Positions 8,410-47,952 of a stretch of DNA of 64,000 bases are shown in pieces. The DNA lies in contig OZ024743.1 of the NCBI GenBank assembly GCA_964016885.1, forward strand, positions 279,000,001 through 279,064,000, in the 5' to 3' direction. A program made the translations under genes and the position numbers. Numbering within the stretch: the first letter of the stretch is position 1; every line of letters starts with the position of its first letter. The stretch comes from Eledone cirrhosa (taxonomy: Eukaryota). The notes beneath the pieces were generated by a model, which was not told where the DNA came from, did no database searches, and saw nothing but the letters and a program-made list of their open reading frames with translations.

Positions 8410-8570
8410 AGGAGCAAGTATGACCCCGACGGCAGAGCTCAAGCCATTTCGATGGCTTGAGCTCTGCCGTCGGGGTCATACTTGTTCCTATTACCCACTC
8501 TACTACACTAAGTATTGAGTACTTTGGTGCGTTATGGTCCATCTGGTTCCTTACCACAATTCCTTCGTTA
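8410..8570 (+). mobile_element. Fold-back element, family A
   Basis: Palindrome ggagcaagtatgaccccgacggcagagctcaagccat / atggcttgagctctgccgtcggggtcatacttgttcc followed by the shared ~80 bp tail; within (TA)n. Confidence 0.8.
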
Positions 8571-11500
8571 TATATATATATATATATGTGTGTGTGTGTG
8601 TGTGTGTATGTATGTATGTGTGTGTGTGTATGTATGTATGTGTGTGTGCGTATGTATGTGTGTGTGTGATGGGCTAATACCGACTGCTTAGAACGGCGAA
8701 TCGTCTATAATAGTAGATACTCACACACACACACACACACACACACACACACACACACACACACACACACACACACACACACACACAAACACATACAAAT
8801 ATATATATACGTATATATATATACACCCACACAACTCAAGTGTGCATGTGAGGCTACTATCTCCATAGGCTTGTTGTGAGTTCTGACTAGACATGAAAAT
8901 GGACAGAAAGTAACATTCCGGTAAGGAAAGCGATATATACAGATATAGATAGAGATATAGACGGAACAAATACTGAAGAGACTCCTGTCCGATTATATAT
9001 ATATAGAAAAGATGAATATAAAATGAAAGTGCTTTTTTTTTAAAAGGAATTTATTAGGTATTGACATATGTTTCTGTAACAGACGGAATACCTATGTATC
9101 GCTGCTTGCGTAATCATATAATGTTAGCAAGTATTCGATAGCAAATGTATAATCAGTTGTCACTTCTTCAGAGATATTGGATAAATTGTAAAAAATCAGA
9201 AAAATTGAAGTATTTATATTATATATATATATATATATATATATATATATATATATATATATATATATATATATATATATATATATATATATGTATGATA
9301 TATTTTCTTTAGAGCGTTTTGGAAGCCTCAACAATGCAGATGGGTAATTCTCCCGGTAACTAGATCCGGTGGTGAAGAGAGATATAACTTAATGTAGAAT
9401 GATATATATATATATATATGTGTGTGTGTGTTTGTGTGTGTGTGTGTGTGTGTGTGTGTGTGTGTGTGTGTGTGTGTGTGTGTGTGTGTGTGTGCTTGTG
9501 TGTATAAATTGACAAAATTCTATTTTGTTTTATTAATCATCGATAAGAATGGTGAACTATATAAGTTCAGTAGCTTTTGCGATAGTAACGCATAATCAAC
9601 AGCACACACAAACTAACAAACATACAAACAAAACACACAAACTAACAAACATACAAACAAAACACAGAAATGACACAAAAATAGAAGAATTCCCTAATTA
9701 TTTGTTGGTCACATATATTGGACAGGGTGGAGGATTGTAAAGATGCACTAAAACTATTGTATATCGCGCAGGTACTGTCTCGGCGATGTCTACAAATTTC
9801 TTCACAGTTTCTAATCACTATGACGTAGTTAAGTCAGTGTACTTCTGATCAGTGCTACTGGTCAGCCATTTACAGAGAAACTTTAATTTGATTAAAACTG
9901 TGGATGAATCATCATGGTTATGTAATTGGATTCTCATTGGGCAATTTCATTGGGGCAATTTTTCTATTGTAATGCACTAGTGAATCTGGGCATTTATAAA
10001 TATATGCTTATATAGATAAGCACATATACATATAAACATGTGTGTATGCGTGTGTGCGCCTCTGTGTACACCCACATATACACACTTGTCAAGTAAATAG
10101 AAATATAAGCTGATGTATAGATGTTTGAATAGACAGCTATATATTCAGATAGAATAGACATACAAAGTCGGACATCCGTTTATTAAGAGAAAGTAAAAAC
10201 GCGATTACAATTTCCTGACGTTTAAATGCCAGGAGCTTACTCTTTTACGAAATCCACACTCTTTGAAGTTAATGTCGTTCAGCTTCTCCCATGAAATACT
10301 TAGACTTATTTAAAAAGAAGAACCGGCAATTTCTTAACTGGAAAATCAAAATTACTTTTCCAATAAAACCAATGGCTAAATATCTTGCCATCTTGCAAGG
10401 TCTATACATCTTTTCTTATAATTTTCTCTTTATTGTGCTGATAGGGTTTGATTTCAGAATTATAAAAAAATTACCTTATTACTTTTCAATTTATGGGTTG
10501 GTGGTAAACGGCATTGTTAAGATACTCTCCCTATCGGCATAACAAGTTCTGCAGTTCTGCATCTATGTTCGATATTTTGAGTTTAAAAGATTTTATTTCG
10601 CTTGTAATACTGAGGTATTTAAGAATGTCTTGAAAATTGCGCAATATCATTTTCACCTCTTAATGACTTATATAAGTGCTTTATGCGCTTATATAACAAA
10701 TGAGTTTACAAGTTTGGTTTTAGTTGATTTTTTAAATTTTCTATTCAATTATAGCTGCAATGCCTCTAAGAAAGTCATTAAAATCACACAATGTTATTTC
10801 TCATCCGCTCTGTAAAACTAAGGCAGCCTTATTATATAAGATATCAGCTCGGTAAATTTGAGGTACCCTTATTATATAAGATATCTATTTTTAGCCTACA
10901 ACGACATTTGTGCACTGTTATGTCGATCTATTTCAACCCAATGCAGTTATAGTTACTGAAATATCGTTGGAGTATGGGATATTTTATTGATCTCTACTTC
11001 AACAAAGTATATTCCTAAATTAGAAACTTGATAGGTTACCCATCTATGTTGCTTTTCCTTACCTTAAGGAATGGAAAGGAGCCACTTGTTACATCAAACT
11101 GAGGAAGCAAGGTTTTCATTGTTCTTTCCATTGCTGATACTCTCTGCTGGTCACAAATCTTGGCAGGCTGATCAAGGTGAAATAAAGTATTTTGCTCAAG
11201 AGGCCATTGCGCCACCTTGTCCAGGATCCGCACCAAAGTCTTAAGAGCATGCGTCCAACACTATTCATTAGGCTACACACCTTCTTATATTTAATCAAAC
11301 ATAAATGTGATTGTGTCGATACAAATATAGAGACTCAGAAAAAGAAGCGAAACCTCATTTTGGCCCATCCTAGCTACTTCTACAAAGGAGGTCGTTGGGT
11401 TAGAGACATAGGCGTATGATTCGAGGAAGGAAAACAACACCCCCATTCAAATTCAACTAAAATAATGGGGAAAATTCGGCAAAGGCGAGAAGGAAACTGA

Positions 11501-14340
11501 TACCTATAGTAAAAAGTGAACAATACATCTGGATTAACTGCTCGACAATAATCAATCAAATATCTTGATAAAGGACCGTCTTAAAATTCACCATATAATC
11601 ATTTTCAGGAGAAGTGGAATTAAACCGAAACACTTATTGCATTCTTATTAGCTCCCTTGTTATAATCCATTCTCGTTTTTGTTGATTACAGAAACTTCTG
11701 AAGCTTTTCAATCTTTCTGTTTTCAATCTTTAACGTATCAATATTTATACGACTTCCAGGAAAAGCTGAAAGCACACTCCATGGAATCTGTTGATAGTAA
11801 TATGTAGATCAGCGCAATATGTTTACCTGTTGCTAGAGCGTATTTTGTTCCTGTTGGACGCCAAATTCGAATTGTGTGCCCTATATCTCAATATGGAAAA
11901 AATAATAACACCTCAGAAAATACCTCTGTAAATTCTATAACAGCACGATGAGCTACATTAACTAATGAAGACTTTAGTAAATGCAGAAATGAAGACATTT
12001 GTGACAGTGATTGGAATTGTGTCGATGCGTGAGGAAAAACTATCTAAGAAGTTATCATAAACCCTCGATTTTCATTCAAGAAAACAAGATATCTATGTAA
12101 ATCAAAGTCTCTCTGTGATTGCAAAGTGGAGATGATGAATTAACAATGGAAGTGCCACTGGATCAAAATGGCAAAAACTGCTATTATTTCAGTTAGGATA
12201 AGGTGATTTGGGAAAGAAAATAAGGTTTTAAAGATAATGATGTAAATATATTTGGGTGATTCTGTTATAGCATTTTTAACCTCGATGCGTCAGATGATTC
12301 AAATAAGTAGTCTAAAAGGTTGCAAGGAATTAAATTTGAAAATTTAATCACGTACCATACTCATCTATCAAGTTCGCAGTAACAGAGGCTGATGGTTATG
12401 AAATAGTTTACCATAAAGATCGTCATGGCATGCAGCCAGTCTCCAATAAAATCGCTGGTATCCTGGCGCCCTTGACTGCTGCAACTTGTTCAGCGAACGT
12501 AGACGATTGTAAACATTTCTGAGAAGTACAACGGGTCAAAAGCGACTAAGCATTTTGGCAATATTAAATATAAAGCGAAAGTATGCCAACATATCTGTTG
12601 GCAATAACAACCAAATAATTTATAATTTTTCTCTATAAGAAAGAGACAAAACAATATTTCTTTTAAGTCGCATGTTGTGTGAGTTGGTCTGTGTATCGAT
12701 GAATGACGATTTTAATAGTAATTATTATTTACATTTTCAACAGTGTAAAATTCCGGGCAAATCAACTCTTCTGCCGCTATTTTCCCAGAAAGACAAATAT
12801 ACTCTATATAGGTTAAGGACACTAGGTCATAAACAAGGATGAGATTATCACACTCTTCATATCATCAAATATCTATCTATACATCTCCCCCCCCCAATCT
12901 CTTTCTCTCTCTCTCTCTCTCTCTCTCTCTCTCTCTCTCTCTCTCTCTCTCTCTCTCTCTCTCTCTCTCTGTATATATATATATATATACGTTACCGATC
13001 TAACTTAGGACAAACAGTAACCATATGTTAATATTGTTCAATCTAAGTGATGGTTGAAAACAAAAATAGATGAAAATAGCATGATATACATGAAGGCAAT
13101 TGAAGACCGAATAAAAGATTAAAACTGTTTGGCTTGGTGTATTGGGGATATCATTATCACCATTATCTTGATCTAGCGTAATCATATTAACGCCATTAGT
13201 AATTGCTTAATTGGATAACTAATTGATAATATGCGAATTAATATGTAATAAACTAAATTAAGTAAATAGTTAAATTACATTTTATACGACAAGACATCAA
13301 GTAATATGATTTAATACCGAAAGTATTTCTAGCTTAAAGTTTAACGCAAATGTGTCGGCATATATGAGGCAGTTTGTGGTGAGAGATATGTATTAGATAA
13401 ATATATAATTCCTTTAATGTGAAATGGAAAATCGAATTATTCAAATGAATGAAACGTTTTATTTGTAAATTAACACAACTATATATATATATATATATAT
13501 ATATATATATATATATATATATATATATATAATTGTGTTAATATATATATATATATATGTGTGTGTGTGAGTGTGTGCATATATCTATATATCTATATAT
13601 ATATATATAGAGAGAGAGAGAGAGGTAGATAGATAGATAGAGAGATAGAAAGATATATATACATATATACTATACATGCATATGTAGATGGATGGGCGAA
13701 TAATTATGATGATTATGATAATTATGATGATAATGTTTCGACAATGCCGATTCAGCTGCCCGCTGATTTCAAACACTGACACGATAAATTAATGACGAAT
13801 GTGAGTACTCCATAGAAACATATGTCCTTAAAACAACTTTCAGAACGATTAAGTGTGATGAAGGAAGTGAACAGGCTAGATATTTGAATTACAAATACAA
13901 TCAAACTGATGCATTTCCACAATTATCGTCTGCTTAATTTTAAGAACATTGCTTAGGATAAAGACAAAAGGAGTAAGATTCCATGCAGGTAGATTAAAAC
14001 TGGATTATAACGGTTCACAAGCCATCTTATTAACCACATGGTCGTTCCGTACTCAGCCATGCCTGCAGCCAACGTACTGCTACACACACACACACACACA
14101 CACACACACACACACACACACACACACACATGTATATATATAATAATTATTATTTCTAATTTTGGCACAAGGCCAGCAATTATCCTAGTGCATTACCGGT
14201 GCTTTATTTTATCGAGCCCTAATTACAGGTAGAACTCATTTTTGCCAACTGAGTGGACTGAACATGAAATAAAGTGTATAATAATAAAAAGACGAGTTGT
14301 TAGTTCTTCAATACACAAATTATATACATATATATATATA

Positions 14341-47464: not shown

Positions 47465-47550
47465 TCTCTCTCACTCTCTTTCTCTCTCTCTCTCTCTTTT
47501 TCTCTATCTCTCTCTCTCCCTGTCTGTATATATATATATATATATATATA

Positions 47551-47952
47551 GTAATAATAATAAATCTGAGGACTAAAATCCAAAGAGGGCTCTATAAGGA
47601 TAAATATATATCAAATATATAAGAACCCTAGAGCAAATATTTATTAAAATAACAGATTAAAGTTTAAGCAAATAATCGCTGCTTTTACCCTTAACATGGT
47701 TTTGTCTTTGCGTGTAATTGTTCTCATAACTCCACGTAACGACGTAGTATCTTCGCTTTTTTTCGTTTATTGCCAGGGAACGTCTTCCCGAACCAAAGTA
47801 TCGTCTTCCTGTTTTCCTTCGGTTGCAGCATTTTTCGAAATATTTAGGTCTGCGTTCACAGATTGATTTTTTTAGTTTCGGAAGATCCCGTTGGGATCCG
47901 TAAGAGTGAAAGCAGCGATTCTTTGCTTAAAATGTTATCTGTTATTTTATTA
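47551..47952. mobile_element. Family B fold-back element with internal spacer
   Basis: 47551-47695 is near-identical to 14341-14485. Inverted arm 47874-47950 carries agttt-CGGAAGA...GAAA-gcagcgattctttgc-TT. (TA)n flanks. Confidence 0.7.

Follow-up and report, generated by a model that had tools for sequence, protein, structure and literature searches.

What makes short fold-back repeats of unrelated sequence share one plan? The question is raised by a stretch of 64,000 nucleotides from Eledone cirrhosa (assembly GCA_964016885.1, contig OZ024743.1, positions 279,000,001 to 279,064,000 of the forward strand), which is called the window in what follows. The original prediction had described at least ten such elements here, derived from about six unrelated sequences, each with inverted arms, a centre at or just upstream of a hammerhead ribozyme motif and one arm extended by an unpaired tail, and had attributed them to Penelope-like elements (PLEs). 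Six families, named A to F, can indeed be told apart. Judged from their sequences, families A to E are tied to PLEs that carry a GIY-YIG endonuclease (EN+ PLEs), and the short fold-backs are head-to-head copies of PLE ends. The palindrome centre follows an initiator-like motif and not the hammerhead, and its distance to the ribozyme core differs per family. In the reading favoured here, to which a probability of about three in four is given, the short palindromes result from twin priming on capped sense PLE RNA near its 5' end: two run-off complementary DNAs (cDNAs) are joined, and the products are dead-end copies of the 5' untranslated region (UTR). The kind of element is known; what is new is a testable mechanistic signature, consisting of the centre at the start site, an extra G at the arm ends and the strict pairing of one arm from each of two fixed sites.

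Fold-back elements and their families

The genome around the window comprises 3.0 Gb in 1,796 contigs and contains many microsatellites. Segments between tracts of (TA)4 or more (n=57) were tested for inverted repeats against shuffled controls, and a self-BLAST of the window served as a second route to palindromes. Thirteen of the 57 segments are above the controls. They cover every element that had been named except the palindrome at 34708-34774, which is shown by the self-BLAST. Families A to E have two fixed outer ends 34-85 nt apart, a short outer end (S) and a tail outer end (T), and the arms are named S arm and T arm after them. The one-sided tail measures about 80 nt in A, 85 in B, 56-60 in C, 34-39 in D and about 72 in E. 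Not every element keeps to the common plan, as the family C element at 34708 is tail-less and the one at 14591-16222 is a long coding copy. Similarly, the setting in (TA)n that had been claimed for nearly all elements holds for most of them, the exceptions being (CT)n on one side of 34708 and 38346, and (TG)n and ATT-type sequence at 45963. Copy numbers can be very high: one 19-mer of family A has 57,420 exact matches in the genome. Pieces of family A are also found in a second organism, and contigs matching an A copy show many different joints.

Link to Penelope-like elements

Five of the six families could be linked to PLE coding sequence, which bears out the proposed PLE origin. In family A, pseudo-long terminal repeats (pLTRs) flank the coding sequence of a reverse transcriptase (RT) and an endonuclease at L152 and L428 (L-numbers are genomic loci fetched outside the window for family comparison). 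A frame of 710 amino acids has RT motifs and the endonuclease; it gave no Pfam match at 0.05. The junction copy L056 gave the route to the upstream sequence of this family, and long copies with RT and GIY-YIG-type coding sequence occur both in tandem (L152, L297) and inverted (L151-L170). The family A tail runs on towards the open reading frame (ORF), with the first ATG about 92 nt beyond T, and in both A and D the S and T sites lie upstream of the first ATG of the long ORF. In family B, 9 of 30 loci have an endonuclease region on the same strand and upstream, and in family E such a region is common to three of eight long loci. Family D matches RVT_1 (E=2.9e-9) and GIY-YIG (E=5.9e-7). Family C has its endonuclease region within the window itself, in the copy at 14591-16222, where the GIY-YIG match (PF01541) has E=3.5e-4 and 21.2 bits, below the cut-off of 22.6.

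Translations read by eye contain RWR/RWK, DKT and CxCX5C motifs in family A. CxCX5C is also present in B and E, DKT and RWR were seen in A only, and families C and D have a CX4CxxC linker. Linker and motif criteria for PLE clades, and (TA)n as the target of the Hydra clade, are given by PMC8557442. By these motifs A, B and E look like members of the Hydra clade, and C and D, from their linker, look like Neptune. Flanks informative for target site duplications were present in only 4 of 69 A copies and 1 of 14 B copies; (TA)n masks such duplications.

Two other PLE pieces were noted in the window. On the plus strand, 33750-34640 is a further PLE 3' end with an endonuclease-like frame (33843-34331), a hammerhead-like motif (34507) and 31 BLAST matches in the fetched loci. 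On the minus strand, a GIY-YIG fragment at 7380-8118 (PF01541, E=3e-5) is broken at about 8119 by a common short repeat.

What sets the palindrome centre

The inner ends of arms were scored on arms met by chance in loci fetched for other families. Relative to the ribozyme core, the zone in which arms stop is at about +42 in A, -5 in B and D, -6 in E and about -70 in C. Among arms reaching this zone, the stop is within -6 to +8 of one base in 71 of 82 cases in A (8 more are at -7 to -9), 40 of 52 in E, both of two in D and 12 of 50 in B, where the next two upstream windows have 1 of 38 and 1 of 37. The boundary in B is narrow, with nine arms at exactly +1 and one in the next 15 nt upstream. Arms that pass the start zone number 3 of 82 in A, 12 of 52 in E, 38 of 50 in B and 17 of 22 in C. 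Stops no more than 7 nt from the predicted cleavage site of the ribozyme are few (A 5/113, E 0/70, B 5/65, C 0/28).

The stop base is the A of TTAGTC or TCAGTC in family A, TTAGTT in B, TCAGTT in D and CCAGAT or CCAGCT in E. From this predicted start A the sequence reads AGTCCAG in A, AGTTTCAG in B, AGTTTGAC in D and AGATTCC or AGCTTCC in E. TATA-like boxes are present about 30 nt upstream of the start in D, E and A, and not in B. The stop motif is called promoter-type on the basis of the initiator consensus and TATA spacing. In family C the stop zone precedes a YY1-like motif. The claim that the centre is at or just upstream of the hammerhead holds only loosely: in A it is about 42 nt inside the core, in C about 70 nt upstream of it, and the B insertion at 47551 is not ribozyme-centred. 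The ribozyme would be near the centre only because it is near the promoter.

The hammerheads themselves are present to varying degrees. A descriptor search of the window gave two complete type I hammerheads, both on the plus strand, at 34799 (C) and 39792 (E), and an Rfam scan gave no hammerhead family among the 150 of 426 rows listed, where the matches were microRNA-like hairpins. The parent of family A has a complete type I hammerhead with a TTGAnAA core, in a parent set partly chosen by core pattern, and the type I fold is the minimum-energy structure in one A parent and not in another. All five A copies in the window lack the 5' half of the core because the centre falls inside stem II of the parent ribozyme, and in a 264-kb region 0 of 27 A arms reach the 5' core. 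Long parents with the whole ribozyme were found for the main A subfamilies, including the youngest. The cores of B (CAGAAGA) and F (CTGATCA) are deviant, and family D has a core, stem II and GAAA, with no stem I found. A core variant of the TTGAnAA type (U3-A8) has been reported in Schistosoma PLEs, as have hammerhead pairs on opposite strands (PMC4209133).

Some candidates were discarded on the way. A guessed A parent, with CTGANGA directly before the A stem, had 0 matches, and a looser pattern had 46. Inspection of 30 of these showed junction by-products or members of neighbouring families; the actual core is TTGAnAA. The existence of parentless subfamilies, based on a ratio of 57,420 to 1,086, was dropped as well, since the 5' pattern missed subfamily variants and the ratio overstates.

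Two observations concern the position of the ribozyme relative to the promoter. In A parents (L064, L137, L235) the 5' strand of hammerhead stem II shares bases with a TATA-like box, and an mRNA beginning at the inferred start would therefore carry just half of the ribozyme at its 5' end. The inferred starts of B and E coincide with the first base of stem I.

An extra G at the arm ends

When an arm ends at the start A, the next base upstream is mostly a G that is absent from the parents. Hand counts of the first 100 rows among the matches listed for each family gave G87/A13 in family A (7,341 matches), compared with G22/A78 at a control site 3 nt downstream (first 100 of 1,724 matches; Fisher p=3e-21). 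The corresponding counts are G59/C22/A19 in family B (3,459 matches) and G76/A12/T12 in E (2,453 matches). If only those 14 cases are considered in which the base cannot have come from the partner arm, it is G in 12. There are 189 loci with two complete A arms, each with its G, and a single spacer base, which is A or T in 49 of the first 50. In L1 elements, an extra G at complete 5' junctions is the trace of the mRNA cap (PMC11702581), and the extra G at the inferred start suggests that the arms described here ran off a capped sense RNA.

Two sites, one in each arm

The outer ends are followed by (TA)3 in 52 of 63 cases in family A, 42 of 50 in B, 30 of 36 in C, 6 of 7 in D and 22 of 37 in E. 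In the parents, the sequence beyond S and T is TAT, AT, ATAT or similar, which was not seen at the T sites of B, C and E. Where the parent RNA continues in this way as a TA-like stretch, the target can pair with it. One S arm and one T arm make up 175 of 181 classified same-family head-to-head pairs; many of these came from tail-bearing queries, and 16 more with one unclassifiable end were left out. The same combination is present in 54 of 55 family A pairs that were not chosen for the tail. Among 18 long copies (2 of 20 loci were left out) the S arm exceeds the T arm in length in eight, the excess reaching about 2 kb, and among 35 short copies it does so in 16. Junctions were parsed in 35 of 59 short copies, the other 24 being unparsable, and 34 of the 35 rows are distinct, the sole repeat being one element seen twice. 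They include overlaps of 1-6 nt, blunt joins and fillers.

The relation between the two arms is informative too. In 108 A pairs the commonest subfamily variants are mirrored in both arms (35 vs 2, 34 vs 7 and 34 vs 4), and one-sided differences are spread evenly, with 150 in S arms and 159 in T arms. The partners of start-terminated arms overshoot the start by at most 9 nt in all 26 A cases and all 23 B rows (about 21 distinct elements), compared with 38 of 78 unselected B arms that go beyond it. In most cases, then, a single S/T pair is the source of both arms. The two cDNAs can also derive from different RNAs: at L031, L049 and L057, among 30 loci selected by core pattern, an A arm is head-to-head with an arm of another family that ends at or one base past TCAGTT. 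At L331 and L332, solo S arms with the G are joined straight to host DNA.

At L042, L048, L059, L032 and L371 the insertion is mixed or has three parts, with an arm from one PLE family attached to a palindrome or an arm from a different one. Such loci suggest template jumps or co-insertion.

Proposed route and rival explanations

Twin priming could proceed as follows. A PLE protein, probably as a dimer, would cut both strands of (TA)n with its GIY-YIG endonuclease, and the two target DNA ends would prime reverse transcription, one at S and one at T. Priming from the 5'-UTR S/T pair would let each cDNA run off the cap after 60-315 nt; the ends of the two would then be joined by end-joining or a template jump, and the product would be a dead-end palindrome centred on the transcription start. 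If the pair downstream of the ORF is used, the arms would be long and their inner ends scattered. For an anole PLE it has been shown in vitro that both strands are cut and extended and that two internal RNA start sites bound the tail; the protein is predicted to be a dimer, and uncleaved RNA is used, ribozyme cleavage not being needed (PMC11167929). Priming from both target ends with joined cDNAs had been among the options put forward originally and is supported. Joining or snap-back at the ribozyme stem had been proposed too and finds no support, as the centre tracks the initiator-like motif with its extra G and few arms stop at the cleavage site.

A wider and rather doubtful idea is that such priming from S and T is the normal route of all EN+ PLEs, with the hammerhead as a switch. 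Cleavage of the downstream ribozyme copy would sever its S/T sites from the ORF, only the 5'-UTR pair could then prime, and PLE output would be diverted into tens of thousands of dead-end palindromes. In a comparison of four families only, those with a well-formed ribozyme (A, E) have mostly short copies and those with a deviant or minimal one (B, C) have many long ones.

Several observations weigh against twin priming from a capped start. The start site itself is read from DNA motifs and the extra G. Family C is a weak case: 5 of its 22 arms have their stop at the inferred start, and the count of G63/T20/A17 (first 100 of 412 matches) is confounded by long copies whose two arms both carry G. 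Family D has few short copies, with G13/A6/T7 in 26 matches. The control site in family A is imperfect, in that the partner arm can supply an A there. One arm passes the start in some A copies (L040, L056, L145, L282), many A arms end 1-25 nt short of the motif, so that trimming or early termination is needed, and four B arms end at +44, near the predicted cut at +46. In the window, the D copy (30312..30771) is without the extra G and the E copy (39695..39920) is exceptional in that its arms overshoot the inferred start by 13-18 nt. Family F gave no PLE coding link in 20 loci, although its plan is the same.

Among the rival explanations, it is unlikely that the RT pauses at structured RNA (e.g. 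hammerhead stem II) and that the centres are deleted later, the G being an ordinary untemplated addition. The stop zone of family A does adjoin the apex of a long stem II, A arm ends are spread over 25 nt, and centre deletions of palindromes are known. However, the boundary is sharp and one-sided, as described for B, in B, D and E it coincides with initiator-like motifs 5' to the ribozyme, and the excess of G is confined to the start position. Slightly less probable again is that one cDNA folds back on itself, at a hairpin or at the stem of the ribozyme, and is extended along its own sequence, or that an antisense RNA self-primes, the antisense template being the published reading (PMC3846280). 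This would account for arms that match within a copy and for junctions with 1-6 nt overlaps, but the tail-less arm is often longer, by up to about 2 kb, and then cannot have been copied from the tail arm. Neither the solo S arms joined directly to host DNA (L331, L332) nor the A arms joined to another family at its TCAGTT (L031, L049, L057) fit with it, junctions with both Gs and a 1-nt spacer leave no priming loop, and the G sits at the sense 5' end.

The short palindromes might also be self-propagating non-autonomous units, similar to retrozymes or to miniature inverted-repeat transposable elements (MITEs). MITEs are short elements with symmetric terminal inverted repeats that are copied as a unit by a DDE transposase. 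The 57,420 matches of one A 19-mer and the fixed outer ends would agree with self-propagation, yet it is very improbable given the 34 distinct junctions in 35 parsed rows, the even distribution of arm differences (150 S, 159 T), the long parents known for the main subfamilies, the A stubs without half of the ribozyme, and the asymmetric ends that run into PLE coding sequence in tandem copies. Symmetric copying as a unit is not what is seen (175 of 181 pairs are asymmetric), with no search aimed at a cognate transposase having been made; nor are the tandem or direct repeats with complete ribozymes of retrozymes, as the arms are inverted and none of the 27 A arms in the 264-kb region reaches the 5' core. 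The suggestion of non-autonomous ribozyme retroelements, as self-propagating units, finds no support: long parents exist, junctions are private and arm differences are not shared one-directionally between copies. Twin priming on capped sense RNA is retained as the preferred explanation.

Coordinates and other features of the window

The elements of the window are collected in Table 1, together with a dispersed repeat of about 190 bp that was found by self-BLAST. This repeat has about ten copies in the window and a look like that of a short interspersed nuclear element (SINE); the copies at 27157 and 27937 form an inverted pair and are 97% alike.

Table 1. Positions of fold-back elements (families A to F) and of a dispersed repeat in the window
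Feature	Positions	Strand	Details
Family A short palindrome	45690..45891	plus	S arm 45690-45747 (minus strand); T arm 45754-45891 (plus strand); inferred start +1 at 45754 and 45747; 3' hammerhead half only (GAAAC 45772-45776, stem III, GTC ending 45794); unpaired tail 45812-45891
Family A palindrome, older subfamily	8410..8568	plus	arms 8410-8489; tail 8490-8568; arms joined 11 and 23 nt downstream of start motif
Family A palindrome	38346..38530	minus	tail left (38346-38422); 9-nt junction filler; (CT)n right
Family A palindrome	40589..40781	minus	tail left (40589-40668); arm ends +3 and +4
Divergent family A subfamily	41866..42001	plus	both outer ends truncated
Family B palindrome	14341..14562	minus	T arm on minus strand, 14341-14500; S arm on plus strand, 14505-14562, with internal deletion; inner end of each arm at inferred +1 (AGTTTC); extra G at 14504; hammerhead-like fold, CAGAAGA core
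Family B insertion	47551..47949	minus	short T arm ending 11 nt into core region; long S arm extending 197 nt upstream of core; not ribozyme-centred
Family C long coding copy	14591..16222	minus	tail 14591-14650; pLTR 14651-14897; GIY-YIG coding fragment 15067-15981; inverted S arm 16054-16222
Family C S arm	34708..34988	plus	S arm 34738-34988; minimal hammerhead, complete, with core 34799-34805; inverted stub of 33 nt; core about 60 nt downstream of centre; tail-less; (CT)n left
Family D palindrome	30312..30771	minus	tail 30312-30349; core TTGACAA, stem I not found; arm ends (30558 minus, 30563 plus) lie 1-2 nt beyond the initiator-like A
Family E palindrome	39695..39920	plus	hammerhead cores 39792 (plus, complete) and 39743 (minus); tail 39838-39920
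Family F, older	45963..46304	minus	short-arm and tail-arm plan; hammerhead-like core CTGATCA
SINE-like repeat, about 190 bp	8119-8311, 27157-27346, 27937-28124, 35399-35583, 52549-52723, 62033-62205		

Further repeats were observed in addition to these. A TA-flanked segment of 766 bp (19452-20217), overlooked at first, has inverted repeats at 19477-19558 and 20028-20109; no long frame is present in it, and the fetched loci contain no relative. A TA-flanked lone arm of a further family is found at 9006-9219, and elsewhere this family forms inverted pairs (L146/L147, L274) and is joined to an A arm (L032). A coding-like repeat at 21390-23110 has an internal inversion (21402-21664 vs 22909-23102) and 41 BLAST matches at about 70% in the fetched loci. 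Finally, 52900-59900 contains long arrays of 27-30-bp tandem repeats with stop-free frames of more than 1,200 codons, which are of low complexity and probably not a gene.

Comparison with known systems

On the origin of the inverted pLTR and tail in PLEs, tens of thousands of junctions here point to a capped sense RNA, one arm per start site and two joined cDNAs. If the reading holds, DNA by itself is enough to locate PLE transcription starts, and dead-end copies of the 5' UTR may make up a large class of the repeats that resemble MITEs. Within the literature searched, outside which subscription papers, Repbase and supplements fall, no earlier account was found of the start site, the extra G or the strict S and T pairing. 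For Octopus vulgaris, passages of PMC13282606 give Penelope and MITE counts, and the words "palindrom" and "hammerhead" are absent from them.

Inverted pLTRs with a one-sided tail and palindromes at the junction have already been published for EN+ PLEs (Craig et al. 2021, PMC8557442; Arkhipova et al. 2013, PMC3846280). The elements described here are like these in their head-to-head pLTRs, the tail at one end and the palindromic junction, and also in the GIY-YIG endonuclease, the hammerhead in the pLTR and the (TA)n targets. They differ in that the tails of A, B and E are 72-85 nt long instead of 30-40, and in that the majority of A and E copies contain nothing beyond the inferred 5' UTR. Whereas the 2013 study, on rotifers, favours antisense self-priming and leaves a sense template open, the junction here tracks the inferred capped sense start. 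A close functional parallel is Poseidon of Anolis carolinensis in vitro (Frangieh et al. 2024, PMC11167929), which likewise has two internal start sites, one at each boundary of the tail, cuts both target strands and extends them, has AT-rich targets and uses uncleaved RNA. That study saw no difference between strands in the start site and left the inverted arm unexplained, whereas here S and T are used one per arm. Unlike in Poseidon, S and T also have short TA homology to the target and are upstream of the first long-ORF ATG (A, D).

In the twin priming of L1 (PMC11702581), too, the second target end primes on the RNA, inverted pieces are joined with microhomology and complete 5' ends have an extra G. 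There, the two cDNAs are copied from neighbouring portions of the RNA, with priming at the poly(A); here both cDNAs would cover the same stretch from two fixed sites, as a rule and not as an accident. Animal non-LTR retrozymes (bioRxiv 10.64898/2026.07.22.740005) are similar in being short, pLTR-derived PLE repeats with a hammerhead, and minimal hammerheads paired on opposite strands were described by Cervera and de la Pena (2014, PMC4209133). However, retrozymes are tandem direct repeats with whole ribozymes, while the elements here are inverted, often have half a ribozyme and give no sign of copying as a unit. The likeness to MITEs lies in being short, non-coding, high-copy, TA-flanked fold-backs, which the original prediction expected to be mis-annotated as such. 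Unlike MITEs, they are asymmetric at their ends, have private centres and continue into the RT and endonuclease genes of PLEs.

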